A stretch of DNA of 64,000 nucleotides from a virus (IMGVR_UViG_3300028833_000146:9322-73321), one strand, 5' to 3'. Shown: positions 1 through 14,595, counted from the stretch's first letter. Program-made: numbers and translations. Notes: a model not told the origin generated them from the letters alone.

Positions 1-664
1 CGAACACGTCTTTAACCGTCTTTTCGTCTTTAGATTCTTCGTCCATGTCGTCTTCTTTGTCAGCATGTTCGACAGCTTCTTCTGTCTCTGACTGCTGTTT
101 CTTTGTCTCTCTCTTAGGTTTCTGAGGTTTCGGCTCTTCCTTAGTTTCAATTACAGGCTCTTCTTTAGCCTCTACTACAGGCTCGCCCTCGCTAGTCACA
201 GTATGCTCGATATACAGCTCTTCAACATCGTTGTAAATAATTGCAGAATCTGCAGAAATCTCTCCATGCTCTAGAACTGCATCAATATACGCCCCAGGAT
301 TTGCACCTGCTAGTACCAGGCTTACTTCACGAATTGCGCCGTGAAGGACATCACTTCCCTGCTGCTTAAGCTTATTTGCATAAATAGACAGTGCTGTAAC
401 ATCACCGTGCTGTACAAGTGCTTTAGCATTATTTCCAGCAGGAGTGTTGTTGAAAGAGCAGTATGCATAGACTCCTTCGTCGCGATTCTCAAGCAAAGCA
501 TGACCAAGAACATTCATTGGATCATTATGGTCATGATTCCACACAAGCGGAACTGTCTGACCATCATTCTGCTTAAAAGCGTCCTTACGAATTGTTCGTC
601 CATCAGAGCATCTGAGATCGTTTCTGGTCGCCCAGCCACTGAAATCAAAATTCTTTTTGCTCAT
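1..664 (-). CDS. Prohead protease (HK97 / S78-like) with acidic scaffold-like C-terminal tail; 5' part only, gene runs off window start
   Basis: ATG at 664-662 with AGGAGA RBS; hand translation MSKKNFDFSGWATRN...WNHDHNDPMNVLGH...EVSLVLAGANPGAYI matches HK97-family prohead protease signature; acidic E/K-rich tail; absent from ORF track because it has no in-window stop. Confidence 0.65.
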   Translation of the reverse strand, partial: MSKKNFDFSGWATRNDLRCSDGRTIRKDAFKQNDGQTVPLVWNHDHNDPMNVLGHALLENRDEGVYAYCSFNNTPAGNNAKALVQHGDVTALSIYANKLKQQGSDVLHGAIREVSLVLAGANPGAYIDAVLEHGEISADSAIIYNDVEELYIEHTVTSEGEPVVEAKEEPVIETKEEPKPQKPKRETKKQQSETEEAVEHADKEDDMDEESKDEKTVKDVF

Positions 665-810: not shown

Positions 811-2076
811 TTACGGTCCTTCTTCTCGGACCGTTTTATTTTCTGTATATGTTACTGGTGTATCGCTATTTGTTGTCGCAAATTGCTGACCATTTCCGAC
901 ATTAAGATTCTTATTTCTAAGCTCATCTGCAATAGGATTATCAACCGGCTTCATGCCAATGATCTGCCTAATCTCATTAGAAGAAGCGATCTCATTGCGG
1001 GTAAACTTATCGGCAATTTCTGCAATTTGACTTACAGGTACCATCTTAAATGGATCCTTAAAGTAAATAATCGATTGATTCTGTGATCTAGCGGTTTTTG
1101 TCAAGAACTTGCGCTTCATCTCGTCAACTATAGCAGATACGATAGGCTCTATAGTACGATTTGTATAATTAAGCATCGCCTGTTCATCTGCTGTGCCTTC
1201 GAGAATTTCTTTTGTAATACCGAGCTGGCTATACAGCATATCTGTAAGATACTCAATCTGTTTCATAAGATTGTTATCCAACGACCGATTAAGCTGCGTT
1301 ACTCTCTCGGTGCCGTCAGTATATGCTATTCCATATTTGGAATTAGCAAGCTGCATCTCAATTTCTCTTCGACGAGTTTCAGCTTGCTGTCTACGTTGCT
1401 CGTTCTTAATAATGTAAGGCAACTGAATAATAAGATCCAGCTTACCTGCTCCGCTTTGTTCATCAATAACGTCCAGTAAGTTCAATTTACGAATAAGACG
1501 TTGCATAGTAGAATTCGGTTCATTCATAATAGCATAAAGCGGATTCTCGACTATTGCCACTGTCTTCTTTGGTAAAACAACTCGCTCTTTAAGCCCAGTT
1601 GTCTCATTAAAAACCATAAGGCCAACCGAATAAGGATACCACTCGATAATCTTACCCGTTCTTAACTGCGTTATGTCATAAGATCCGGTTAATCTCGGGT
1701 TCATCGTGGTTTCCACAGGCACAATAGCCACACAACCATCATCAAACATGGACTGAACAACATCTTGCATAAATGCGCGGCCTGTTTGGTCCACGTTAGC
1801 TTCAAGTGTCAAACACGTATTAAGACCAGAATCGATAACAGAAGTGAATCTTCCATTCTCATCCAGCCTAACATGCTCAATGGTTATTGCTGCGCAATCA
1901 ATCGATATTCTGTTGTATACACTTGTTATGATCGACTTCTCGTTTCCCCTCGTAAATCTCATACGATCCGGACGATAAGAAGATACATAACCAATGTTTG
2001 TATACTGATCGGGAGGATCCCGATTCATGAAAGCATTCCAGGCATGCTTAAGCCTATTGGAAAATGTCTCGGGCAT
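811..2076 (-). CDS. Putative portal protein
   Basis: 421 aa; GGGAGG RBS; sits between terminase and prohead protease in the canonical TerL-portal-protease order. Confidence 0.5.
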   Translation of the reverse strand: MPETFSNRLKHAWNAFMNRDPPDQYTNIGYVSSYRPDRMRFTRGNEKSIITSVYNRISIDCAAITIEHVRLDENGRFTSVIDSGLNTCLTLEANVDQTGRAFMQDVVQSMFDDGCVAIVPVETTMNPRLTGSYDITQLRTGKIIEWYPYSVGLMVFNETTGLKERVVLPKKTVAIVENPLYAIMNEPNSTMQRLIRKLNLLDVIDEQSGAGKLDLIIQLPYIIKNEQRRQQAETRRREIEMQLANSKYGIAYTDGTERVTQLNRSLDNNLMKQIEYLTDMLYSQLGITKEILEGTADEQAMLNYTNRTIEPIVSAIVDEMKRKFLTKTARSQNQSIIYFKDPFKMVPVSQIAEIADKFTRNEIASSNEIRQIIGMKPVDNPIADELRNKNLNVGNGQQFATTNSDTPVTYTENKTVREEGP

Positions 2077-2158: not shown

Positions 2159-2647
2159 CTAATCGTTATATTTATATGGATCGTATATAGTATTTACTGC
2201 TTTAGCACTCAGCGCGTTCATACTATAATTAAATGAACTAAATGAAGCATCCGCAAACTGTTTGCCTCGAGAAATCTGCTTCTGGCTCAACGAAGAAGCA
2301 AGATTATCACCATATCTACGTTCCATTTTGTTATAAAACTTATTTGCCTTATTAATTGCTCTGGTGAGTTTGGTATTCGCTTTATTAAGCTTACTTGCAG
2401 ACTTTGAAACTTTCTCTTCCGATCTAAAGAATGTTTTACTATTCTCCTTCGAAAACTTATATGCACGCTTCGCCTGTTTCTCTTGCCGTCTTATTACTTT
2501 ATCCTGGAGTCTATCCAGCTTGGACGAATCTTTATTTATTCGAGCTTTTCCTGCTTCAGTCAAAGTACCGTCTTCATTCTGATAGCGTCTTACTCCCCAT
2601 TTCTGGCCGAGAATGCCATGATGAGATAGTTCATTACTGTATTCCAT
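2159..2647 (-). CDS. GILGQKWGVRR-motif family protein 1 (K-rich C-terminus)
   Basis: ATG at 2647 (track TTG at 2668 is less likely); N-terminal motif HHGILGQKWGVRRYQNEDGTLTEAGKARI. Confidence 0.6.
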   Translation of the reverse strand: MEYSNELSHHGILGQKWGVRRYQNEDGTLTEAGKARINKDSSKLDRLQDKVIRRQEKQAKRAYKFSKENSKTFFRSEEKVSKSASKLNKANTKLTRAINKANKFYNKMERRYGDNLASSLSQKQISRGKQFADASFSSFNYSMNALSAKAVNTIYDPYKYND

Positions 2648-2670
2648 AGTCCATTCCCCTGTTGTCAATT

Positions 2671-3336
2671 CTATCGTACATTCGCAAGCTCTTCTTTATA
2701 ATATTTATTGTACAGTCTCTTTGCTTCCGTATTCCCATCTTTTGGAGTAAATATCGCTGTCATTGGAAGATGCATAGCAGCAGTCATGCCAACTGAAAGC
2801 GCAGTCATTGCTCCAGCAGCAACCCAATCGCTAATCTTGGTGGTTTTTTCAAACACCATTTTAACGTTATCTTGACCTAGTTTATTAGCTGCAGATTTAG
2901 ACAATTTCAGATCTTTGAAAGAAATATCTTTCACTTTTTCTTGTCCATACTTTTCTATAAGATTTGCGCAATGTTTCTTAACTTCCGCTTCTTTTTCTTT
3001 GTAATCTTTAGCTAATCGCATTGCTGTCGTTTGAGCAGCCGTAGCCTTTTCATATGCTCGTTGTGTACTTCGCTTTTTTGCATCTGGATCTTTTTCAAAC
3101 TTTTTCGAAGCCTTATCCTCAAGTTTCGCTGCTCGGTTCATAGCTCCGACAGTTGCTATACCATATATAGTAGCTTCTCTTCCTTTATTGTACGCATCTT
3201 TATTATCAGATTTCAGTTCTTTGTAATAACGTTTACGGCCATCTGCCGTCAATGTACCATCAGCATTCTGAAACCGTCTTACGCCCCATTTCTGACCGAG
3301 GACGCCATAATGATATAGTTCGTTATTATAATCCAT
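2671..3336 (-). CDS. GILGQKWGVRR-motif family protein 2 (K-rich)
   Basis: N-terminal motif HYGVLGQKWGVRRFQNADGTLTADGRKRY; lysine-rich coiled-coil-like remainder. Confidence 0.6.
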   Translation of the reverse strand: MDYNNELYHYGVLGQKWGVRRFQNADGTLTADGRKRYYKELKSDNKDAYNKGREATIYGIATVGAMNRAAKLEDKASKKFEKDPDAKKRSTQRAYEKATAAQTTAMRLAKDYKEKEAEVKKHCANLIEKYGQEKVKDISFKDLKLSKSAANKLGQDNVKMVFEKTTKISDWVAAGAMTALSVGMTAAMHLPMTAIFTPKDGNTEAKRLYNKYYKEELANVR

Positions 3337-3354
3337 AGTTTATCTGTCCTCTGA

Positions 3355-4056
3355 TCATCTAAATTTTTTTGTGACTTCGCGAATTTCTTCTTGGCTCACC
3401 CCGTTAAGGGACATATCAGTTACCTGATTTGACAATCTTCCTAGTTGTTTCTGTTTACTATCGCTAGACTTCTGAGATGCTTTATGACGATTATAAGCAT
3501 AGAGGCCTGCTCCAACTGCTACAGCACCCAAAGCAACGGCTCCTCCTAATCCTGCCATACCGCTTGAATACAGACTCTTTGCTAGTGTCGCTCCAAACTG
3601 TGAATTCATCAAGTTCCCAACTGCTGCTTTCGCAGATTCACTAATTGTAGAACCGGCTAAATTCTGTCCAAGAACTTTCTGAATTTGAGAACTCGCGTAG
3701 CTCAACGGATTATTAGCCAATTTATCTGCACCGTATTTTTCTAAAAATTTAGTAGCAACAGTCCTATACTTATCATTGCCAACTGCTTTGATGTAATTCA
3801 AATAAGAAAGGTCCCGAGCTTCTGCTAAGGTTCCAAGACTTTTAATCCCTAAGGCTGCAGCAGCAGTTCCTGTAGTTGTTGCGGCTAATCCACCAAGCTG
3901 TGCTTTAGAGTCCATCTTCTCTTCAAAATTTTCTTTATTCCCATAACGTTTTCTGCCGGCTTCAGTCAAAGTACCGTCTTCATTCTGATAGCGTCTTACT
4001 CCCCATTTCTGGCCAAGAATGCCGTGATGGCACAAGTAATCATAGTCGTAGTCCAT
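3355..4056 (-). CDS. GILGQKWGVRR-motif family protein 3 (Gly/Ala-rich, membrane-like C-terminus)
   Basis: AAGGAG RBS; N-terminal motif HHGILGQKWGVRRYQNEDGTLTEAGRKRY; C-terminal glycine-zipper-like hydrophobic stretch. Confidence 0.6.
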   Translation of the reverse strand: MDYDYDYLCHHGILGQKWGVRRYQNEDGTLTEAGRKRYGNKENFEEKMDSKAQLGGLAATTTGTAAAALGIKSLGTLAEARDLSYLNYIKAVGNDKYRTVATKFLEKYGADKLANNPLSYASSQIQKVLGQNLAGSTISESAKAAVGNLMNSQFGATLAKSLYSSGMAGLGGAVALGAVAVGAGLYAYNRHKASQKSSDSKQKQLGRLSNQVTDMSLNGVSQEEIREVTKKFR

Positions 4057-4074
4057 GTTGCATCATCTCCTTAA

Positions 4075-4557
4075 TTAGTCTTTATAAGCAATGTTCTTCT
4101 TTGTATATGCAACACGTCCGCTTGCATATACGCCATTCTTCACTTTACGCATATCATAGCCTTTATCTGCTATTCCAGGGGTGATACCCATCGATCCACG
4201 GTTTGCAACATACCTAATTACTCGTCCAGATGGTACCTCAATATCCCCGATTTTCTTATTAAATAGATCGGCTAATTTTCTATTATAGGCGTTCATGTAC
4301 GAAGAACTGATCTTGCCATCCTTGTTGTACTTTCTAATATTAGGCGTGACCTCAGTACGGAGATAGTTGTTCAGCTCTTTCTTAACCGACTTGTACACTC
4401 TCTTATGAATTCGCTTGTCTATTTTAGAAGCGAGCTTCAACTCTTTTTTATCAAGACGTTTCTGCCCAGCAGGGGTAAGTGTTCCATCGTAATTCTGATA
4501 GCGTCTTATGCCCCATTTCTGTCCGAGGATGCCGTGATGAACTAAATAATCCCCCAT
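4075..4557 (-). CDS. GILGQKWGVRR-motif family protein 4 (basic)
   Basis: AAGGAGA RBS; N-terminal motif HHGILGQKWGIRRYQNYDGTLTPAGQKRL. Confidence 0.6.
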   Translation of the reverse strand: MGDYLVHHGILGQKWGIRRYQNYDGTLTPAGQKRLDKKELKLASKIDKRIHKRVYKSVKKELNNYLRTEVTPNIRKYNKDGKISSSYMNAYNRKLADLFNKKIGDIEVPSGRVIRYVANRGSMGITPGIADKGYDMRKVKNGVYASGRVAYTKKNIAYKD

Positions 4558-4571
4558 TTTGATTATTCTCC

Positions 4572-4600
4572 TTGCTTACAATGTTTATTAGATGTATAAT
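4572..4600 (+). promoter_or_regulatory. Sigma-A/sigma-70-type promoter TTGCTT-N17-TGTATAAT for the plus-strand lipoprotein gene
   Basis: -35 TTGCTT at 4572-4577, 17-nt spacer ending in TG, -10 TATAAT at 4595-4600, GGAGG RBS at 4619-4623. Confidence 0.5.
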
Positions 4601-4631
4601 TAGACAACAATACTAAATGGAGGCGAAACTT

Positions 4632-5063
4632 ATGAAACAACTTGTTAGTCTAATTCTTGCACTAGTTTTATGCTTTTCTTTAGCATGCTGTTCTTACGCG
4701 GAGTCCGAATTCAATCTAGACAACATGAGCATTGATGAGCTGCTCGAACTTAACACTGCCGTCAAATCCAAAATCGCAGAAAAATTAAAAGACATCGATC
4801 AGCCATATAAAATTATTCCTGCTGGGCGATACAACGCAGCAATCGACATAGTTGTCGGCTCATATGAAATAAGCCCAGTAGAAGAAACATGTGACTGGCA
4901 ATGTGCCATTCGAGATGATACCAATCCGCAAGGCTGGCGATTCTATGGCGAAAAGATCATAGAACCCGGTTCATATCTGAGAATTCCAGTAGAAGAAAAC
5001 TCATGTTTTAATATTACAACGGCATGCTACATTCGCAAATCCGAAGTAATAAACTTCGATTAA
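4632..5063 (+). CDS. Lipoprotein (moron; possible superinfection-exclusion/host-interaction protein)
   Basis: MKQLVSLILALVLCFSLAC|C lipobox signal peptide; ATG 4632 eight nt after GGAGG; the only plus-strand gene in the structural region; its stop codon overlaps the terL stop tail-to-tail. Confidence 0.7.
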   Translation: MKQLVSLILALVLCFSLACCSYAESEFNLDNMSIDELLELNTAVKSKIAEKLKDIDQPYKIIPAGRYNAAIDIVVGSYEISPVEETCDWQCAIRDDTNPQGWRFYGEKIIEPGSYLRIPVEENSCFNITTACYIRKSEVINFD

Positions 5064-6811
5064 TCGAACGCGTCTTTGTTAAGCTTGTATGCTATAAACG
5101 CATCCATCATAGCAGCGACATTATCGATCTTCTGCTCATGACGTTTCTTCCATAGCTTACGGTTTCCGTTCGTGTCTTCCAGAGTAATAGCATTACCCAT
5201 CGCAAATGACATAAGCTCTTCATCAAATATTAAGAGTCGGTCCTCTGCAAGCTTCTTAAGCTCACCAAGAGGTACCGACTCTGTTTTTGCACCCTGTATT
5301 ACTTTCTCTATTCCAAATGGTCCGTTCTCTGTTTCCCAACGTTCTACAAACGCCCTGGCATTATATGGGTCGAATCCAAAGCATCTAACGTCATACTGCA
5401 TCTCGTTTATATGATTGTCGAGGTCATCGTAAACTTCTGTAAGATCGAGTAACGACCCTTCCAGTACTATTAAACTGCCTTCTCTCATAAATTCTTCGTA
5501 CTTAAGCCGCATAGCAAGCGGCAGCTTACTAAACGTAAACGAAGAAATGTAGCTTCTGGTCTTAATACCGAATCTACCTCCGCCAAGAGGGAACATAAAT
5601 GTAAAGGCACAAAAATCGTCACCCTGTGAAAGATCAGCGCCCATAGCACACGGCATATTCCAATAACTCTGTCTTTTGTGAGGAATAGTTTCCTCATAGG
5701 TAAAGAAGTAAGTGTAGCCCTCCATAGGGATACCAAACCGCTTGGCAAGAATGTCGTTTCGTGCTGCGGGAACTTTCTCAGCTCTTTCTACATCCAACTG
5801 ATAAGTTTCGTAGCTTACTGTCTTTCCTATATTAGGATTAGCTTTAATCCACATTGCAGGATCTGCTACTTCGTCCACACTATCAAGCTTGTAATACCAA
5901 ATCGAAATGTGAGGATTAACATAGTCGCCTTTTAAGATGTCCATTAGTTCCATCTTAATAGTATCGCCACTACCATTTCGAACTGTACCCTCAGAACTCA
6001 TGGCTACTATAAGATAGTCGTCTACACCGCCCTTAGCTGCGCCTTGCTCAATTGCACCGATAGGATCTTCTCTAAGATCTCCGCTCAGCCATTCGTCAAC
6101 CGTAGCGCATTTTACTCGAAGGCCTTGCAACTTATTAATGCTCATAGGTCTTATTTCGAGGAGAGATCCGGTCAGAAAGTTCTCAATACCTTTCTTTGTA
6201 CTGGCTAGTTTTACTCGAGCAGCCTTTGAGCCAGTCGTGTTCTGCAAACTGCCCTCAGTTAAAAACTTAAATAAAGGCCCCCTTGATCTTACAATCGAAG
6301 TTCTTATTGGTGACAGTATTTCTTCAGCCTGTTTCATAGTAGGAGCGGTTGTAATTTGGTGAGTAGTAGCAGTGTCTATATTAAGAAAGTAATTTTGTAT
6401 GCAAGAACCGTACATGCTCTTCGCAGCACCTCGAGCAACTATAAGATACTGTTTATTTACGAGTCTCTTTTTTATGCGCCTTGTAACATAACGGCCACCA
6501 TGACCCTCGGTATAAGGCTCATATACAGTTCTTTCTACAAAATAGTACCAGCCAAATATCTGCTCAGCCCAGAGCTTAAATGTATCAAGTAGAACGAGGT
6601 CTGATCCGTCGGTCAAAGTAAGCTCATTCTCGCAATACTCAATAAATCCAGAAATAGCCTGATCATCGTAGTATACTCCAGGATTCGCTATAAGAGCATC
6701 AATACGATTCATCTCCATCGATATCTCTCTGCAAACTGGAATCTCACCACGAATCACAGCGTCTCTAAATTTACCGTAGTAAAGTGGCGTTGCAGTGTTC
6801 GAAAGTGACAT
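5060..6811 (-). CDS. terL: Terminase large subunit
   Basis: 583 aa; Walker-A-like LIVARGAAKS in N-terminal ATPase; C-terminal nuclease-like region (FGFDPYNARAF); Terminase_1-like organisation. Confidence 0.85.
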   Translation of the reverse strand: MSLSNTATPLYYGKFRDAVIRGEIPVCREISMEMNRIDALIANPGVYYDDQAISGFIEYCENELTLTDGSDLVLLDTFKLWAEQIFGWYYFVERTVYEPYTEGHGGRYVTRRIKKRLVNKQYLIVARGAAKSMYGSCIQNYFLNIDTATTHQITTAPTMKQAEEILSPIRTSIVRSRGPLFKFLTEGSLQNTTGSKAARVKLASTKKGIENFLTGSLLEIRPMSINKLQGLRVKCATVDEWLSGDLREDPIGAIEQGAAKGGVDDYLIVAMSSEGTVRNGSGDTIKMELMDILKGDYVNPHISIWYYKLDSVDEVADPAMWIKANPNIGKTVSYETYQLDVERAEKVPAARNDILAKRFGIPMEGYTYFFTYEETIPHKRQSYWNMPCAMGADLSQGDDFCAFTFMFPLGGGRFGIKTRSYISSFTFSKLPLAMRLKYEEFMREGSLIVLEGSLLDLTEVYDDLDNHINEMQYDVRCFGFDPYNARAFVERWETENGPFGIEKVIQGAKTESVPLGELKKLAEDRLLIFDEELMSFAMGNAITLEDTNGNRKLWKKRHEQKIDNVAAMMDAFIAYKLNKDAFD

Positions 6812-6814
6812 TGT

Positions 6815-7423
6815 TTATTGCTTTTGGCCTTTCTTCTTAAATAATCCCTTTTTAGATTCGTTCTTACCATTATCTCTAGCTTTTTCAAGCTTATCCTGCT
6901 TCTGCTGCTTGTCATTGGAATTGTTATTACCAATTTTGAAAGCTTTATTCAGTTCGTTGCTCATAACATCTTCAAAGTCTTTACCTGAAAATGCAGAGAT
7001 AGCAAAGGACTTACCTGCTGCCACAAGAGTAGGTTTCAGAACATCATGGACAAGCGCATTTTTAATTGGACCAGACGCTTTTTTACCTTTTTCTTGGTAA
7101 TTCTTTACAAAGTTCTGTTCCATCTGGGCTCTATTATTTAAATCTTTAAGCTCCTGATCCGTAAGAAGGCTAGGCTTCATTTTAGCAAGCTTAGCTCGTT
7201 GCTTAGCTTCATTTTTTCTTTTAGCCATAGCTTCTTTCTCAGACTGCTTTTGAGCTACTTTTAGCTCTCGTTTTTCTTTTGCCTGCTGCTGTTTTGCATA
7301 ACGTATTTTCCCAGCTTCAGTGAGACTTCCGTCTTCATTCTGAAAACGTCTTATACCCCACTTCATACCAAGAATCCCGCTATGCTGCAAATCGCCATCG
7401 GAACGTATGACCCTATATTCCAT
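6815..7423 (-). CDS. GILGQKWGVRR-motif family protein 5 (K/Q-rich coiled coil)
   Basis: Motif HSGILGMKWGIRRFQNEDGSLTEAGKIRY at aa 14-42; immediately upstream of terL. Confidence 0.6.
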   Translation of the reverse strand: MEYRVIRSDGDLQHSGILGMKWGIRRFQNEDGSLTEAGKIRYAKQQQAKEKRELKVAQKQSEKEAMAKRKNEAKQRAKLAKMKPSLLTDQELKDLNNRAQMEQNFVKNYQEKGKKASGPIKNALVHDVLKPTLVAAGKSFAISAFSGKDFEDVMSNELNKAFKIGNNNSNDKQQKQDKLEKARDNGKNESKKGLFKKKGQKQ

Positions 7424-7438
7424 TTTGTTTACCTGCCA

Positions 7439-7945
7439 TCAACATTTATCGTCTGCCATATAAAACAATAGACTTTCTCCATCAGTCTTATATGTCACGT
7501 TAAGATCACTGTCATCGTAATCACATTTTTTAGAAGATTTATTATGACTCTTCCTACTGCAAGATGACCTAGAATTAGAATAATCATCGTACTCGTCCGG
7601 ATCAAAGTTTTTACTACTTTCTGCACTATACAATCGCCATTCTAACTCTTTAATGTTTTCATTAATTGCATTGGCGTGTGCTGAACTCTGTGGTGGATCA
7701 AACATCATGCGCACTTTAAGGGCAATGTAGGTCTTTACGGCTTGTATATCTGTTTTATCATCGAAGAAATCCGACCATCTAGCCGAGGCATCTTCGATCA
7801 TCATAGGAGTATCCGGACCAACTCCCATCTGATGCAGAATCATCAGAACTGAATTAATGTCCATAAGAATATCTGCATCGAAGTACTCGTAATCTTCAGA
7901 TATACCGAGCAATTTCTTTACCGATATTAGAATTGATTCGGACAT
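7439..7945 (-). CDS. Hypothetical protein (acidic C-terminus); function unknown
   Basis: ATG 7945 preceded by GGAGGTGCTC RBS (track GTG at 7951 is less likely). Confidence 0.5.
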   Translation of the reverse strand: MSESILISVKKLLGISEDYEYFDADILMDINSVLMILHQMGVGPDTPMMIEDASARWSDFFDDKTDIQAVKTYIALKVRMMFDPPQSSAHANAINENIKELEWRLYSAESSKNFDPDEYDDYSNSRSSCSRKSHNKSSKKCDYDDSDLNVTYKTDGESLLFYMADDKC

Positions 7946-7962
7946 GAGCACCTCCTAATTGT

Positions 7963-8829
7963 TTATTTATTCTTGGAACGTTCGTAGTTACGCCTGTCCC
8001 AATCATCCATAACTTGATTGTAAAGTTCAAAGCTACGTACACCAGTTTTGGCTTCATTATCTAGCACTTTGTTATACCATTGCTCTCCCTTATCTACAAG
8101 GGCCTTAGTTTTTGGATCTTTTTTTGCATAGTTTTCCCATACATTTAAATCCATGTCCAACGAACCTTTTGAATCTTCAACCCAACGTTTGACGAAATCC
8201 TCTCTGGTTTCATCACCAGCCAGTCCTTCTTTTACACGCCGATCGTACCGTTCGTTAGCTGTTTCAGAAGCATACTTATTATATAGTTTTTCGTCACGGT
8301 GCAATTGTTCATATCTTTTATTAATTTCATCTTCAAGATCGAGTCGCTTTTCATAGTCGTACTTTTTCTTTTGCTCTTCTGATAAAAGACCATACTTGTT
8401 CGGGTTAGTCTTTTTATCATATTGTCTTAAAGCTCGCTCATCTATGCCTTTTTTATTACCTGAATTATACCGTTTCTCTCCAGCAGGAGTGAGAGAACCA
8501 TCTGGATTCTGATACCTACGAACTCCCCACTTCATTCCGAGGATACCATGATGAGCAAGTTCATTAGAAGGAATGTATTTAGAGAATCTATTTACATCAC
8601 CAACAGAAATATCGCTGAAGCTTAGTCCATACTCTTTCATACGTTTAATAATAGCAGAGGCAAGTTCCTTTTCATGTTTCGGATCTACATAATTAAAAAA
8701 CTTAATAGCTGATCGAACATGGTCTGCATCAGGCATTGGAAACTTCTTCTGGCTAGGAACACCATACTTTCTGTCCTGTTCATCCAAAGAACCAATTTTA
8801 ACTGCTCTGTGTATCATATACTGATTCAT
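7963..8829 (-). CDS. GILGQKWGVRR-motif family protein 6 with ~90-aa N-terminal extension
   Basis: Start ATG 8829 with AAGGAGAAAG RBS and ATGA overlap with the HNH gene stop (track start 8865 would translate the RBS); motif HHGILGMKWGVRRYQNPDGSLTPAGEKRY is internal. Confidence 0.55.
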   Translation of the reverse strand: MNQYMIHRAVKIGSLDEQDRKYGVPSQKKFPMPDADHVRSAIKFFNYVDPKHEKELASAIIKRMKEYGLSFSDISVGDVNRFSKYIPSNELAHHGILGMKWGVRRYQNPDGSLTPAGEKRYNSGNKKGIDERALRQYDKKTNPNKYGLLSEEQKKKYDYEKRLDLEDEINKRYEQLHRDEKLYNKYASETANERYDRRVKEGLAGDETREDFVKRWVEDSKGSLDMDLNVWENYAKKDPKTKALVDKGEQWYNKVLDNEAKTGVRSFELYNQVMDDWDRRNYERSKNK

Positions 8830-9260
8830 ATTACTCTTTCTCCTTTGCCTTGTTTCCATGGGCATGTATCATTTTTCTTTCTCTCTATAGGATCTTGTGG
8901 TAGCAAGTCAAAGCTGCCATAGTGAATAGCATTGTGTGTTCTATCCCCAACACAGATTAAGAACTCTGGATTCAATAAAATTTCGCGCTGGTAAATAATG
9001 TCATCTGAATCTACAGGATTCATATGATGCACTATAATTCGGCCAGCTATAGGATAGTTTGCTAATCCAAATTCGCAGCCATTATCGCGGACTATAACGC
9101 TATTTCGAACTCGCTTCCAAATTTCTGTATGATAAAAAGTTTGGTTCAAATATCTCTCGAATCCAAACGTCTCCTGACCAACAAGACCTCCGAGTTTCAG
9201 ATAGTTAAATCTTTCTACTAGAGAAGGAAGCTGAATCAGTTCACTGTAAGTCTTCATCAT
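8826..9260 (-). CDS. HNH endonuclease (packaging-associated)
   Basis: IIVHHMNPV...DRTHNAIH HNH motif; typical position next to the terminase genes. Confidence 0.75.
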   Translation of the reverse strand: MMKTYSELIQLPSLVERFNYLKLGGLVGQETFGFERYLNQTFYHTEIWKRVRNSVIVRDNGCEFGLANYPIAGRIIVHHMNPVDSDDIIYQREILLNPEFLICVGDRTHNAIHYGSFDLLPQDPIERKKNDTCPWKQGKGERVI

Positions 9261-9588
9261 TCTCCTGGGTACTCTGGCCGCTGTAACCTCTAAATGCCTT
9301 CATAGCATCAGCGTATAGTTCTTCGATATGCTTAGCAGATTTAAGTGCTTCGGTCTTTGCATCTAGCAACTGTGCCTGCTTAGCCATTATTTCTTTTTCT
9401 AACTTCTCTTTGGTCGAACCAAGCTTTAGATAATGCGTTATTACTTGTGAAGATGCCGTTCCATCTCTTAATTGCTGCTCCGCCAAATCAACAGCCAGTG
9501 CTATAAGTTGATTCTCTCGCGCTTCGGGAGTACCTGCAGGAGGACTTGGTAGAGTCGATTTTAACGGCTCTTTTCTAGTTTTTCCCAT
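9241..9588 (-). CDS. Hypothetical helical protein; possible terminase small subunit
   Basis: AAGGAGG RBS; 115 aa helical protein directly upstream of HNH and terL; no motif recognised. Confidence 0.35.
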   Translation of the reverse strand: MGKTRKEPLKSTLPSPPAGTPEARENQLIALAVDLAEQQLRDGTASSQVITHYLKLGSTKEKLEKEIMAKQAQLLDAKTEALKSAKHIEELYADAMKAFRGYSGQSTQENDEDLQ

Positions 9589-9695
9589 AGTTCTCGCCTC
9601 CTTACTCTGAGAATCAACAGGGTATTATATGACTCTCTGGAGGAATTGCTGTGGTTCGTAATATATTTCCTCCTACTTTCTATTTCATCTTGTTT

Positions 9696-9920
9696 TCATA
9701 TATCAGGATAACCTGCTCCTGGCGAAAACTGATCATGCTCGAAGTTGCACTTCCGTCCGCATGTGCATCTTATTATTCTTGCGGGATTGTAATAAAAGCA
9801 CTTTTTACAAGGGCGTTTACTTTCAATCTCTTCTATTCTGGCAAGACGCTCTTCAACTCTCTTCTTAGCGTCGCCATCTACTAATATTTGCTGTGCAAAA
9901 ATACCGGCCATACTATTCAT
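9696..9920 (-). CDS. Small Cys-rich (zinc-ribbon-like) protein
   Basis: AAAGGAAGA RBS; CKKCF...CTCGRKC. Confidence 0.4.
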   Translation of the reverse strand: MNSMAGIFAQQILVDGDAKKRVEERLARIEEIESKRPCKKCFYYNPARIIRCTCGRKCNFEHDQFSPGAGYPDI

Positions 9921-10083
9921 GTCTTCCTTTATGTATTATTTAAAGAATCATTTAAAGAGACGTAGGCAGAAAAGCAGAAGAAGTTTCTGTTGGTGTCATT
10001 ACAATCATCTGGAGAGGAGAAAAGCAGGGTCAACCATATTTCAAGAAAAACCTACGTCCCTTTAAATAACTCTCTAAATATAA

Positions 10084-10157
10084 TACCGAGGGAAGGATTC
10101 GAACCTTCGATCATACGATTATAAGTCGTCCGCTCAAACCTACTGAGCTGCCCCGGT
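10084..10157 (-). tRNA. tRNA with anticodon UAU (Ile, AUA-reading)
   Basis: Hand-folded cloverleaf: acceptor ACCGGGG/CCTCGGT (one G-U), D-arm GCTC/GAGC, anticodon loop CTTATAA, T-arm GAAGG-TTCGAAT-CCTTC, discriminator A; 74 nt. Confidence 0.8.
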
Positions 10158-10211
10158 AAAAACATTCTCAAAAATATCCCTCCGGAGAAATTCCGAAGAG
10201 GCCGGCGATGT

Positions 10212-10247
10212 AGAGGGGGGTGTATATAGTATAGGCCCCCCTCTAGG
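10212..10247. other. GC-rich 9-bp-stem hairpin (AGAGGGGGG...CCCCCCTCT) beside a second palindrome TAGGGTCACCCTA
   Basis: Perfect G/C stem in an otherwise AT-rich ~400-bp intergenic region next to the tRNA; no adjacent T-run, so not a classic terminator. Confidence 0.3.
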
Positions 10248-10656
10248 GTCACCCTAATATATAGGGGTGGTTTGGATATTTTTGTCTAAAACATTTCAAA
10301 ATACTACTTATTTCTTGAAATAATTATTAAATAGTTTGAAAAGAATCATTTAAAAAAGCTTTTTTAAATCTTTTCTTTTAATTGACCCCCCTTACTTACA
10401 AACAAAAATACATTTTTTTTTGTTTGTAAAGCAACAGGATCGCTAATGCATAACTTTTCTTAGTTATTTCTTAACAAATTCGCTAACAACTAAAACAAAA
10501 TTCCATTTAAACAAATCACAAAACGATTCTTAAATGCTACAAAGGTATTAGTTTGTTAAACTTTTTCTAAAAACTAATTAAAATTATTAGTTAAAAGAAC
10601 AAATTTTTAAACTTTTGAACTTTAAAAGTTAATTCTTTTCAGAAAAACTATTAAAA

Positions 10657-10923: not shown

Positions 10924-13900
10924 CTACTTGCATGTTGTTTTCAGCACCTTGTGAACCGAATCCAACAGCAATACGATCGACGGCACCTACAGAAATACCC
11001 AAAATGTCGGCTATGGTGGCTGGGCTGTAACCTTTTTCAAGATAGTTTCGAATTCTAGCAGCTTTTGATTCACTAACTTGATTTTTGTAATCTTTAGGCA
11101 TAGCTCTGTCTCTTAGCTTGTCCATGTCAGTGTTCTCAAGAATCTGTTTCAATTTATTTGCACTTATTGCGCCTGCTTGAATAGCTTCCCATTCTTCATC
11201 AGATACGTCTATACGTGCCTTCTTAGCCCCATACCGTACCCGTGCCTCTGCTAGCGCTTGGGATTTGACCTTTTTTTCATCTTCTGATGACATATTTGGA
11301 TTGTCTTGCTTTTTAGTCTTGAAAATCCAGTTAGCAGAGAGCTGTGCTTGCCGTTCGCGGGGGGAGTTCTTAAGGGCGTCGTCTAATTTATTATTCAATG
11401 TCGCAATTTCATTCTGATAACGGGCAGCAGCTTCCTTACTATAGGGGGTAGGGGCGGTAGCAATTAGTTCTTTTCTTGCTCTATTAGCAAGGGCATAAAG
11501 ACTATTCGCATAGTTAGCGTACGCAAGCTCTTGCTGCGTCTGATAATCTGACACCAAATATCCAGCGTCACCATACGTCTCTAGGGCGTACTGCATCTTA
11601 GAGATCTTTTGCTTCTTTACAGTAGGCTTATCCTCATATCCAACAATAAGAGGCTTCTGAATATCCATACCGGTTTTAGGGTCCTGTATGGTTATCGTTT
11701 CCTTTATTTTACGCCCATGACTGTCCTTTAAAACGACACCATTTTCATCTCTTTTATACTCGTATATGGGCTTATTATATGACTCGCCTGTTACCTTAAA
11801 GACTTTTTCACCTGTAGAAATATCAATTCCGTTTTTTACATTTGGATTGTTTGGATCGGTGTATGCTGTACGCCGTTTCGGAATATCCATAGGTGATTTT
11901 GACTTGGATATTAACGTAGATGCGCCGCCATTAGATTTTCCTTGATATTTAATATAAAGTTCTTTGACCTTATTATCTTTAGCACTCTGTCTCCAATCTA
12001 GATGATGTTTCTCAGCATCAATTATAACCATGGAGTGCTTGACTGCTCTACATATTTCATCCTCGTCTGCACCTTTAAGCGTCATATCAGTTATCAAATT
12101 GGATATTTTACCCATCTGATCCTGTTTCCTAAACCCATGCGCAGCATCAACAGGATATAAAGGAGAATTCTTATCTGTGATCTCGTACTGGTCTGTTGTA
12201 AAGTTCTCTAGCCCTTTCAACTTTGGGGTGGCTTTTATTTTGGTGCCAACGCCACCAAGTGATATCGGTATAACAAGGGCTGTATCGCCATCGAAATCTG
12301 CACCTGAAAGCTGAGAAGCGGCCTTCATGTTTATTCCGACTGCATCCGGTGCTTGTCCTATAATATCAATACCAGGTTTATATTCATTATTAACTTTCAA
12401 AACCGGTATTTCAAAGGTTCCTCCGTGCGGATGTCTAACAAGCACAACTGTATCACCAGTATGATAATTTGGCGCATAAATCTGTCCTTCAGGAATATCA
12501 GGAAGAGGCAGCAAAAGAGCACTAGTTTGTCCAGGAAGAGACTGTGCTTTCAAATGGACAGCCGAAGCATCGCAATCATCTGCGAATGACTGAAGATACT
12601 TTTGTCTGATCACCGGATTCGTGATGGCCATAATATCTTCATACTCATTCAACTTGCCTTGATAAGTAATATCCAGCTGCTGCTTGATAAGCGGAATATT
12701 CTGCTTTGAAAGAAACTGTGCAGAAAGGCGTTTCTTCCAGTTCATCCAGTCGCCTTCAGAGTTAACAATGTTAATAGCAGAAAGATGCTCTTTTCCGTCA
12801 GAACCAATATAGAATCTTTGACCGCCTTTTTCTTCTGGCTTAATCGCCGCACCAAATACGTTGTCTCTGTCTACAACTTTAATTCCATTTTCTTCTTTTG
12901 TTTTAAACTTTTTAAGTACATCTGACAAAGGTGTTCCTTCTGGATGCTTTGTATTAAAACGAACGTCAACTCCATCTGGAAGATTGTCGGAATAAATGGC
13001 CATTCCTTTGAGATAGTATTTGTCATCTACAGCAATTCTTACCTGAGCATAGTTTGATTTGCCAAGAGAAATGTCTTCTACTCCTCTTCGCAACTCAATT
13101 AGTCCATCCATTTCCGTTCCGCCAGTTCCATCTGGTTTGCCGTAGTTAATGGCTATGCGACTTGAATCTATGCTTTGAGGATAATACATTCCGTATTTAG
13201 TTCTCTCAAAACCCGGATGTTTTTCCTGAGCGGCGATAGAATATCCATCGTAATCGACAACAGATCTAATGTCTTCTAAGTTGTTAAACACATCTTTCTT
13301 GGTCACTCCCGGAGGAGCAAGAACTTTAAGGTGCGTGAATGAACCTGGATTTGTTGCCTGAGGAACAGTCAAATCAGAGAACAAAGAATATCCATTAGCC
13401 TTCAACAACTGTGCAGCTGCATTAAGGGTAACATCTGATACTCCGAGTTCTCTCTCAACACCAGCGCCAATATCCAGCATACCAACAGCATCTACCTGTT
13501 CCTTAAGTCTGAGAGCAATTGAAGATGCAGTTTTCTTACCTAATGCATTGTCCTGGGGTTTTAAATAGTTTCTGACTGTTCCTTCTGACAGGCCAAGCAT
13601 TTTGCCAATAGTACCGTTAGAATATCCATGGCGCTTCAAATCGACAACTTGCGCAATGTCGTCGATTTTCTTTGCTTCTTTGTTTGTGGTTATCTTCGCT
13701 CTAAACTCTCCAGTGGACATGTTCATGTCATGAGCGATTTGTGTATTGTTCCAATCAGGATGCTCTTTCTTTATCTCGTTTAATCGAGAAGCAAAGCCTT
13801 CATCTCTTTGAAACGGATTTTTTCCTGAACCAAGCGGATATCGACCTGATCCAACAGGCGCTCCATCAAGTTTACTTCTTCCTTCATGAGCTAAACTGAA

Positions 13901-13948
13901 AATATCCAGATCGTTGATCTCATTAAAGTAGGTTTCTTCCATGATCAT
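10895..13948 (-). CDS. Putative YonO-like single-subunit RNA polymerase (beta-prime-type DPBB with ADFDGD) flanked by N- and C-terminal HTH domains
   Basis: ~1017 aa; VVLVRHPHGG...GINMKAASQLSGADFDGDTALVIPIS aligns by eye with the beta-prime NRAPTLHR...NADFDGDQMAVHVP catalytic region; HTH-like GYSNGTIGKMLGLSEGTVRNYLK near the N-terminus and GYSPATIADILGISVGAVDRI near the C-terminus; start chosen at ATG 13948 (ATGA overlap with upstream stop), 13972 or 13942 are alternatives. Confidence 0.5.
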   Translation of the reverse strand: MIMEETYFNEINDLDIFSLAHEGRSKLDGAPVGSGRYPLGSGKNPFQRDEGFASRLNEIKKEHPDWNNTQIAHDMNMSTGEFRAKITTNKEAKKIDDIAQVVDLKRHGYSNGTIGKMLGLSEGTVRNYLKPQDNALGKKTASSIALRLKEQVDAVGMLDIGAGVERELGVSDVTLNAAAQLLKANGYSLFSDLTVPQATNPGSFTHLKVLAPPGVTKKDVFNNLEDIRSVVDYDGYSIAAQEKHPGFERTKYGMYYPQSIDSSRIAINYGKPDGTGGTEMDGLIELRRGVEDISLGKSNYAQVRIAVDDKYYLKGMAIYSDNLPDGVDVRFNTKHPEGTPLSDVLKKFKTKEENGIKVVDRDNVFGAAIKPEEKGGQRFYIGSDGKEHLSAINIVNSEGDWMNWKKRLSAQFLSKQNIPLIKQQLDITYQGKLNEYEDIMAITNPVIRQKYLQSFADDCDASAVHLKAQSLPGQTSALLLPLPDIPEGQIYAPNYHTGDTVVLVRHPHGGTFEIPVLKVNNEYKPGIDIIGQAPDAVGINMKAASQLSGADFDGDTALVIPISLGGVGTKIKATPKLKGLENFTTDQYEITDKNSPLYPVDAAHGFRKQDQMGKISNLITDMTLKGADEDEICRAVKHSMVIIDAEKHHLDWRQSAKDNKVKELYIKYQGKSNGGASTLISKSKSPMDIPKRRTAYTDPNNPNVKNGIDISTGEKVFKVTGESYNKPIYEYKRDENGVVLKDSHGRKIKETITIQDPKTGMDIQKPLIVGYEDKPTVKKQKISKMQYALETYGDAGYLVSDYQTQQELAYANYANSLYALANRARKELIATAPTPYSKEAAARYQNEIATLNNKLDDALKNSPRERQAQLSANWIFKTKKQDNPNMSSEDEKKVKSQALAEARVRYGAKKARIDVSDEEWEAIQAGAISANKLKQILENTDMDKLRDRAMPKDYKNQVSESKAARIRNYLEKGYSPATIADILGISVGAVDRIAVGFGSQGAENNMQVDEGGAPIAI

Positions 13949-14595
13949 ACTACTGCGTCCTCTGCTTTCCATTTACTTACGATTTTGTCCAATGTTATAA
14001 TCTGGTTCATTGCAGTCTGAATATCCATAGGATCTGGATCGCTTTCAATAATCTCGTCGCTTTGATAAATCCTCAAATGTGTAGAAATATCCATAGGTTT
14101 TACTCCGTACTCCAGACAAAAAAGTGCAGAATAAATTAGTGGCTGTTCAATATGAGCCGGAGTAACTCCACTTTTATAATCGTGAATTCTTAATTCTTTG
14201 TCGCGAAAATATATAGCGTCAGTTGTCCCGAAACAATTGTCAGAATAATAGAGCAGAACTTCTGAATCCATCTGAAAACCGATAGCATCATTTACATAGC
14301 GCTTCAAATTATCAAACTTAGAATCGAGATCAATCACGCTCATCGGTAAACCCTTGTCGAGCAAGTACATCATCACATCATTTTTGTCAGTCTTGTACAT
14401 TCGCAGCCGATATTTAATTCTCTTTTCGGCATATTCATGAAGGGTTGTTCCGATCACAGTAGCGTACTGAGCTTTGTACCTTCGAAATATCAATTCTAAA
14501 GATTCTTCGTCAGTTCCATAATTAAGCCAGCTGTAACCGCTTGGATTAAATAGTGCATGCTTACCTACTAAATTTGAGTGCTTGTTCCAGTTCAT
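13945..14595 (-). CDS. PD-(D/E)xK-family nuclease (exonuclease-like)
   Basis: 216 aa; TTDAIYF...ELRIHDYKSG resembles a D...(D/E)xK core; AGAGG RBS. Confidence 0.45.
   Translation of the reverse strand: MNWNKHSNLVGKHALFNPSGYSWLNYGTDEESLELIFRRYKAQYATVIGTTLHEYAEKRIKYRLRMYKTDKNDVMMYLLDKGLPMSVIDLDSKFDNLKRYVNDAIGFQMDSEVLLYYSDNCFGTTDAIYFRDKELRIHDYKSGVTPAHIEQPLIYSALFCLEYGVKPMDISTHLRIYQSDEIIESDPDPMDIQTAMNQIITLDKIVSKWKAEDAVV

Follow-up and report, generated by a model that had tools for sequence, protein, structure and literature searches.

What function could be served by a peptide of some 30 amino acids that recurs on six otherwise unrelated phage proteins whose genes lie among those for the terminase and the portal? 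This question is raised by positions 2159-8829 of a 64,000-nucleotide stretch of viral DNA (IMGVR_UViG_3300028833_000146:9322-73321; this whole stretch is called the window), in which six minus-strand genes encode such a motif. An earlier interpretation of this DNA (the original prediction) suggested that the motif is a capsid-targeting or portal-docking module. This idea is the best supported one after testing, on evidence that is circumstantial and with a receptor that is putative, and we consider it somewhat better than an even chance that the motif is a portable docking peptide which loads basic accessory proteins into the virion. Circumstantial support for this proposal comes from the placement of the motif genes in the head or virion module, the modular use of the motif independent of its position in a protein, the basicity of the proteins that contain it, its predicted disorder, and the 'structural protein' labels on proteins of Lactococcus phage 1706.

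The six open reading frames (ORFs) are all confirmed where they had been placed, with the sixth starting at either 8865 or 8829, and their products are referred to as p1 to p6 in order of position (Table 1). Each ORF contains a 30-residue sequence of the form L-x-H-x-G-[IV]-L-G-[QM]-K-W-G-[VI]-R-R-[YF]-Q-N-x-D-G-[TS]-L-T-x-x-G-x-x-R, the core of which is [FL]-L-x-H-[HY]-G-[IV]-x-G-[QM]-K-W-G-x-R. All six copies agree at 18 of the 30 positions, and pairwise identity within the motif is 63-90%. As predicted, the motif is N-terminal in five of the six proteins and internal in p6. A hidden Markov model (HMM) built from the window's motif copies recovered exactly these six ORFs at E ~1e-25, and there was no further match to this HMM at E<1 anywhere in the 64-kb window. 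When the DNA was scanned for the pattern GGNCARAARTGGGG with <=2 mismatches, 11 matches were found versus 2.7 expected, a number that was reached in 0 of 100 shuffles; the six motif copies are the four that match exactly plus two of the seven that have two mismatches. The observation of the motif is real and statistically secure.

Outside the motif, the six proteins are unrelated, as had been claimed, with 21-30% identity in a forced global alignment. The original prediction divided these remainders into lysine-rich coiled-coil, very basic, and Gly/Ala-rich, membrane-like types. The analysis extends strong basicity to all six proteins, which have isoelectric points (pI) of 9.3-10.1 and contain 13-23% K+R, and restricts the membrane-like description to p3, the only one of the six with a clear hydrophobic segment. 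The p1 gene has an ATG at 2647 with a Shine-Dalgarno-like AGGGG 8 nt upstream.

A repeat of this kind could act mainly at the level of DNA, either as a site of recombination through which C-terminal modules are shuffled or as a nucleic-acid element that acts in cis. The unrelated C-terminal parts of the proteins are in line with such a role, as is one pair of motif copies, those of p1 and p3 (2540-2629 and 3946-4035), which share an exact run of 56 nt and use the same codon at a fraction of 0.77 of their identical residues. The motif-coding segments lie within a few bases of the positions first given for them, and their identity, which had been estimated at about 80%, was measured at 62-86% with a mean of ~70% among the six copies. 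In the other 14 pairs exact runs are <=17 nt, and for most pairs the fraction of identical residues with the same codon is 0.35-0.65, versus 0.39 expected from codon usage. Because these same-codon fractions scatter around the codon-usage expectation, the DNA similarity is what selection on the peptide predicts, and the 14 pairs, which also lack long exact runs, therefore place the conservation at the protein level. In addition, the amino-acid sequence is conserved across phyla despite differences in guanine-cytosine (GC) content. Recombinational shuffling of cargo domains, which the original prediction had also considered, is thus supported only for p1 and p3, since the other pairs fit protein-level selection; the repeat in these two genes suggests recent gene conversion or duplication of the tag alone. 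With this pair excepted, the same-codon fractions led to the rejection of DNA-level conservation as a functional signal, and a DNA-level role as the primary function is largely refuted and, in our estimate, very improbable.

The motif had not been recognized from any described domain, a statement that holds for its function and not for its presence in databases. It corresponds to Pfam PF23847 (DUF7211), a 25-position model without an assigned function, which the six proteins match at E 6e-10 to 8e-4. Relative to the gathering score of 27 bits, p6 (38.7 bits), p2 (30.1 bits) and p1 (27.5 bits) score above it, and p3 (24.5 bits), p5 (21.3 bits) and p4 (19.1 bits) score below it at E<=8e-4. This model spans only the first half of the window's 30-residue version, and 140 of 150 related proteins match it. 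The profile and structure searches that had been proposed as a check placed the motif in Pfam and among PHROGs and gave no match in PDB or BFVD. The motif matches PHROG 32444 and several other PHROGs without assigned function, and family searches with the six proteins returned only DUF7211 and such function-less PHROGs, with no match in NCBIfam. A PDB sequence search with the six-protein profile gave no meaningful match, and a Foldseek comparison of the p4 model with BFVD gave nothing at E<=0.001, its best weak matches being other members of the same phage group. A signal of the type VII secretion system (T7SS) or WXG type was considered and rejected, since the only such match, to WXG100_2, was non-significant (E 0.18) and the motif is N-terminal and unstructured rather than a helical hairpin. 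Literature searches with the name DUF7211, with strings taken from the motif (such as KWGVRR and GMKWG) and with descriptive phrases returned no paper in which the motif is described, and it is unmentioned in Arthrobacter, Microbacterium and Gordonia genome papers. The motif is therefore already catalogued in databases, with ~30,600 clusters that carry it, and functionally undescribed in the literature found.

The phage represented by the window (39% GC) has no close relative among GenBank phages. When its first 12 kb were compared with phage records by megablast, the sole match was the stretch of Gordonia phage Schwartz33 that encodes the terminase large subunit (TerL). This TerL DNA (5064-5998) is 72% identical over 935 nt, which is unusually high across host phyla. 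By its gene order and proteins, the phage is assigned to the FP_oengus/1706/ReqiPepy6/Gordonia DJ/Streptomyces BI supergroup, which has been described previously (bioRxiv 10.1101/842583) and includes Faecalibacterium phage FP_oengus, Lactococcus phage 1706, Rhodococcus phage ReqiPepy6, Gordonia cluster DJ, Streptomyces BI and several Arthrobacter clusters. The genes common to this supergroup encode an HNH protein, a connector, TerL, a portal and a protease-capsid fusion, and members also encode a Cas4-like exonuclease and, after it, a YonO-like RNA polymerase.

The position of the motif genes relative to TerL, portal and connector was mapped at 155 motif-carrying loci from viral, genome and metagenome-assembled-genome contigs; these loci were chosen through the motif, span +/-10 kb and include some near-duplicates. 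TerL and portal are both present at 108 of these loci, which together have 354 motif genes. Of these genes, 351 are on the strand of the two landmarks, 171 of them upstream of TerL at a distance of <=8 kb and the other 180 in the interval from TerL to portal. The number of motif genes at these loci ranges from one to eight, which puts the window's six at the high end. In 467 of the 488 motif ORFs the motif falls within residues 1-50, and it is also found internally and in tandem units, with a maximum of five copies within one protein. A HMMER scan of 1.84 billion representative proteins found 30,638 clusters (50% identity) at E<=1e-3, and the motif was found only in phages of Actinobacteria and Firmicutes. 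For example, all seven ReqiPepy6 genes between TerL and portal (gp015-021) start with the core D-D-F-L-A-H-Y-G-V-K-G-M-K-W-G, and a large protein encoded upstream of TerL has an internal core in ReqiPepy6, Gordonia phage Mossy and 1706 (ORF7). The 1706 ORF7 protein, whose gene has the same position as that of p5, contains two motif copies and reaches 41.8 bits with the DUF7211 model of Pfam. The second half of the window's motif (YQNxDGxLTxAGxxRY) is specific to the Clostridia-phage branch, and ~10% of motif copies continue instead as WGxRNGPPYPLG.

At two loci (L069 8676-12913; L093 6474-8100), the motif genes do not surround TerL but are bordered by a PHROG 4338 gene on one side and the tape measure gene on the other. 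Because the few motif genes outside the TerL block adjoin the tape measure gene, the tag goes with the virion module and is not strictly bound to head genes. Many proteins of 43-80 residues that consist of the motif alone head the list of homologues, and motif-only ORFs of 40-80 residues were seen in metagenomic relatives, for example, at L001 9764-10364, at L002 10001-10445 and at L112, L114, L090, L119 and L140. These looked like stand-alone mini-proteins, a view against which their context argues, since in 12 of 19 short motif ORFs examined an out-of-frame ORF continues downstream. As the break often falls at homopolymer runs (A7-A9, T7 or G5), the motif-only ORFs are probably frameshifts or assembly errors, with transcriptional slippage as a possible source.

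The proteins to which the motif is attached have several properties that bear on its function. When related phages were searched for the motif on other domains, as the original prediction had proposed, fusions to toxin and enzyme domains were found. Pfam analysis of 150 diverse relatives identified a papain-fold Gln deamidase toxin (eight proteins), GNAT, 2H phosphoesterase and PG_binding_1 domains, and Gordonia phage Mossy gp17 has the order motif-GNAT-motif-glutamine deamidase toxin. One further locus (L002 18073-18821) encodes a 174-residue protein with the motif plus Ntox50, followed by a 75-residue ORF that overlaps it by 4 nt; this pair lies among the tail genes of a phage contig that looks lytic, and its layout resembles that of a toxin-immunity pair. 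Within the window, p6 consists of a folded DUF6582-like N-terminal domain, the internal motif and a long helical C-terminus. Its residues 1-100 (the DUF6582-like part, with predicted local distance difference test (pLDDT) values of 85-97) correspond in relatives mostly to a free-standing protein of 87-100 residues, which is sometimes fused to DUF7211.

The basicity of the window proteins extends to the family, as the median pI of 442 motif proteins is 9.71 (86% above 9), versus 5.49 (16% above 9) for 1365 neighbouring ORFs. In AlphaFold2 (AF2) models of p4 and p6, the invariant core of the motif is the least confident part (pLDDT 47-63), whereas the adjacent domains reach 85-97; in the p4 model this core is a coil (pLDDT 55-63), after which come two helices and a small beta unit. 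A low-confidence core is the pattern expected of a linear motif that would become ordered only on its partner, and because the most conserved residues are predicted to be unstructured, a docking peptide is favoured over a folded domain. In addition, the 'structural protein' label is found in GenBank on 1706 ORF7, which has two motifs, and on 1706 ORF75, the homologue of the RNA polymerase considered below.

A divergent form of the tag may also be present on the YonO-like RNA polymerase encoded in the window. This assignment of the enzyme is supported by its DxDGD loop (as GADFDGD), one of the polymerase motifs described for YonO-like proteins (bioRxiv 10.1101/842583), and by a match to PHROG 4291 at E 1e-300; homologues with ~40% identity are present in 250 phage records, mostly under the sole annotation 'helix-turn-helix DNA-binding protein'. 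The N-terminus of the window's polymerase is DIFSLAHEGRSKLDGAPVGSGRYPLGSG, in which the putative tag (SLAHEG...GSGRYPLGSG) is coded at ~13820-13894. The N-termini of 46 distinct homologues follow the form [DE]-x-[IL]-L-x-H-Y-G-x-x-R-x-S-G-R-Y-P-W-G-S-G, which is also that of 1706 ORF75, Streptomyces phage Bilo gp57, Gordonia phage Duffington gp91 and Arthrobacter phage MrAaronian gp86. The polymerase tag has an acidic-hydrophobic-L-x-H-Y-G start in common with DUF7211 and a G-x-x-Y-P-[LW]-G end in common with the PPYP variant of the motif. Comparison of the polymerase tag with the WGxRNGPPYPLG variant of DUF7211 by hhalign gave a probability of 74% and P 2.7e-5, versus P 0.2-0.4 for reversed controls. 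Among the 144 minus-strand ORFs of >=60 residues in the window, only seven contain [LIFMV]xH[YHSE]G, namely the six motif proteins and the polymerase.

The polymerase gene is ~1.3 kb upstream of the 115-residue gene at 9241-9588, with few short ORFs between them. Records with the motif and records with the polymerase number 55/55 for Gordonia, 54/54 for Streptomyces, 7/7 for Curtobacterium, 4/4 for Microbacterium, 4/4 for Rhodococcus and 2/2 for Faecalibacterium. Because these per-host counts are identical, they suggest that motif and polymerase strictly co-occur, the comparison being one of record counts and not of record identities.

If the motif is a docking peptide, it would be a short, portable element that binds a conserved site inside the assembling head, with the portal and the protease-capsid fusion as candidate locations for this site. 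Through this binding, a variable complement of strongly basic accessory proteins would be carried into the virion beside the DNA, and the loaded proteins would probably enter the next host cell with the genome. The degenerate tag on the YonO-like polymerase would, by the same route, make this enzyme a component of the virion that serves early transcription. Packaging in this phage, the receptor and ejection are steps that we infer, as is any cleavage of the tag.

These features can be compared with those of known systems that place proteins in phage heads or similar shells. The capsid-targeting sequence (CTS) of phage T4 comprises ~10 N-terminal residues (MKTYQEFIAE), which attach to the scaffold core and are cleaved away by the prohead protease. 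The T4 internal proteins are a hypervariable, basic set that is packed with the DNA and injected, and the tag is their sole conserved part (PMC3012670). A short conserved tag on variable basic proteins, as in T4 IPI-III and Alt, is also what is observed here. The DUF7211 motif differs from the T4 CTS in that it has no sequence similarity to it, is longer, is also used internally and in tandem, and is found in siphoviruses of Gram-positive hosts, so the T4 analogy of the original prediction survives as a matter of logic and not of sequence or tag position. Because internal and tandem copies exist, the DUF7211 tag would not simply be a cleaved N-terminal leader, and the same copies argue that a free N-terminus is not required.

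A second parallel is the MuF family, which includes SPP1 gp7; its gene is in the packaging module beside that for the portal, gp7 reaches the procapsid by binding the portal, and toxin domains of various kinds, Ntox50 among them, are fused to members of the family (PMC5576092). As a functional analogy, DUF7211 genes follow the same modular logic in the same gene neighbourhood, being located beside the portal gene and fused to toxin domains. MuF, however, is a folded domain of >100 residues (PF04233/PF06152) that is usually present in one copy per genome after the portal, whereas DUF7211 is a peptide of roughly 17-30 residues in one to eight genes. MuF HMMs gave no match in the six proteins (E<=1), in 150 relatives (E<=1e-3) or in the called genes of two relatives. 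From the lack of a sequence or domain match, the internal and tandem use and the many genes per genome, we conclude that, as judged from sequence, the motif belongs to neither the T4 CTS nor the MuF family.

Phage N4 (with its virion RNA polymerase, vRNAP) and crAss-like phages (with gp66) carry an RNA polymerase in the capsid for early transcription. The window's YonO-like enzyme resembles these in its DxDGD loop, and the 1706 homologue is labelled structural, which makes virion packaging of the enzyme a putative further likeness; a difference is that the window phage is a siphovirus by its gene set. We know of no counterpart in N4 or crAss-like phages of a tag that is shared between the polymerase and accessory proteins. 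In encapsulins, short and conserved cargo-loading peptides, joined by flexible linkers to diverse cargo, bind the inner face of an HK97-fold shell. This analogy is mechanistic only, since the encapsulin peptides are usually C-terminal, have different sequences and function in a non-viral compartment.

Several observations weigh against the proposal that the motif loads proteins into virions. The cargo regions of most relatives, including those of the window's six proteins, have no recognizable domain, and basic helical tails would equally fit scaffolding or DNA-binding roles. The positional statistic is blind to distant copies of the motif, as the loci were selected through it and are limited in span, and the full 64-kb window has none. 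The similarity between the polymerase tag and DUF7211 is short and of moderate probability (63-74%). The labels on the 1706 proteins are GenBank annotations, ReqiPepy6 gp019 is labelled structural by similarity only, and the presence of the six window proteins in virions is proposed on circumstantial grounds. One alternative is a role in assembly, in which helical, basic proteins would be held by the motif at the portal or the protease-capsid fusion as a scaffolding core, to be later removed or degraded and not delivered. A scaffold of this kind would suit a lineage in which protease and major capsid protein are fused and no gene is annotated as a separate scaffold, and it would agree with the long helices predicted for several window proteins and with the location of the genes in the head module. 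An essential scaffold, however, would not be expected to be hypervariable in sequence or present in one to eight copies per genome, toxin or enzyme cargoes and a tagged polymerase would make no sense for it, and 1706 ORF7 is labelled as present in virions, so we think it unlikely that assembly is the function of the motif.

It is also conceivable that the motif and the basic tails bind DNA, either for initiation of packaging in the manner of a small terminase (TerS) or for condensation. The motif itself is basic (K, R-R, K/R-R), as are all the proteins, one copy is usually directly upstream of TerL, the usual place of a small terminase, and no small terminase is annotated in the lineage. Family searches with the six proteins gave no match to a TerS family, and at several loci, such as L055, L087, L131, L137 and L155, the connector abuts TerL with no upstream motif gene. 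In a small terminase, multiple copies, enzyme cargoes and membrane segments would be out of place, and the conserved 115-residue gene at 9241-9588 (PHROG 4259) is an alternative candidate for this role. The most conserved residues of the motif (H, G, W, G) are atypical DNA contacts; a function in DNA handling is thus one to which we assign little weight. A similarly low likelihood is given to a host-directed motif that binds a conserved hub of transcription, translation or secretion in Gram-positive bacteria and has no link to the virion. The confinement of the motif to phages of Actinobacteria and Firmicutes is compatible with such a target, the predicted disorder suits any docking peptide, and a phage RNA polymerase could use a contact of this type. 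Early takeover genes, however, are not normally found between terminase and portal, yet 351 of 354 motif copies are in this block; two motif carriers of 1706 are labelled structural, and the motif is nearly unchanged across host phyla, among which the phage head proteins are the common component.

The gene content around the motif genes agrees with that of the supergroup (Table 1). The terminase, the portal and the HK97-type prohead protease, which the original prediction had named as neighbours, are all confirmed, and in relatives the protease is a protease-major capsid fusion. The product of 4617-5063, the sole clear plus-strand gene of the block, gave no family match. A gene on the opposite strand beside TerL is also found in FP_oengus and at locus L002 (L003 10803-11855; L002 6569-7624), and this site may be an insertion hot spot. 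A stretch of ~1 kb (9589-10656) between the 115-residue PHROG 4259 gene and a small gene downstream of the polymerase contains few short ORFs; in relatives with linear genomes the ends are located at the equivalent region, and 9589-10656 may hold the packaging site or termini.

Table 1. Coordinates of the motif genes and of neighbouring features in the 64-kb window.
Feature	Coordinates	Strand	Remarks
HK97-type prohead protease, 5' part	1-664	-	Continues beyond window start; candidate receptor or processing enzyme
Portal protein	811-2076	-	Candidate tag receptor
p1, DUF7211 protein, 162 aa	2159-2647	-	N-terminal motif coded 2540-2629; lysine-rich helical basic tail; pI 10.0
p2, DUF7211 protein, 221 aa	2671-3336	-	N-terminal motif coded 3229-3318; middle part helical and basic; C-terminal stretch weakly hydrophobic; pI 9.6
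p3, DUF7211 protein, 233 aa	3355-4056	-	N-terminal motif coded 3946-4035; Gly/Ala-rich; hydrophobic aa 164-188; pI 9.4
p4, DUF7211 protein, 160 aa	4075-4557	-	N-terminal motif coded 4456-4545; pI 10.1
Protein with lipoprotein-like signal, 148 aa	4617-5063	+	Signal LALVLCFSLACCSYAES; between TerL and fourth motif gene
Terminase large subunit (TerL)	5060-6811	-	Flanked by motif genes
p5, DUF7211 protein, 202 aa	6815-7423	-	Directly upstream of TerL; motif aa 12-41 coded 7301-7390; lysine-rich tail; pI 10.0
Head-tail connector (Phage_connect_2)	7439-7951	-	Conserved landmark of block
p6, DUF7211 protein, 300 aa	7963-8865 (alternative start 8829)	-	Internal motif aa 103-132 coded 8470-8559; pI 9.3
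HNH endonuclease	8826-9260
Conserved 115-aa gene, PHROG 4259	9241-9588		Opens HNH-to-portal block
YonO-like single-subunit RNA polymerase, 1025 aa	10895-13972	-	Catalytic GADFDGD; helix-turn-helix regions at both ends
Cas4-like exonuclease	13945-14595

A broader form of the docking-peptide proposal is that DUF7211 is a universal loading and delivery tag of this very large siphovirus supergroup, through which a polymorphic range of basic effectors and the YonO-like polymerase would be injected together with the DNA, a possibility that we rate as serious though short of an even chance. The system would then be a Gram-positive counterpart of the T4 CTS and of the N4 virion RNA polymerase, with toxins, acetyltransferases, phosphoesterases and membrane proteins as its effectors, an extension that we hold with the same reserve. 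If these proposals are correct, they would explain a block of "hypothetical" genes in hundreds of actinobacteriophages and in lactococcal and gut Clostridia phages, and would assign ~30,600 protein clusters to one process. They would also mean that infection by these siphoviruses involves the injection of an RNA polymerase together with a variable group of effectors, which bears on host takeover and on the evasion of defence, and that a short peptide could serve as a handle for loading chosen proteins into phage heads for delivery to Gram-positive bacteria.

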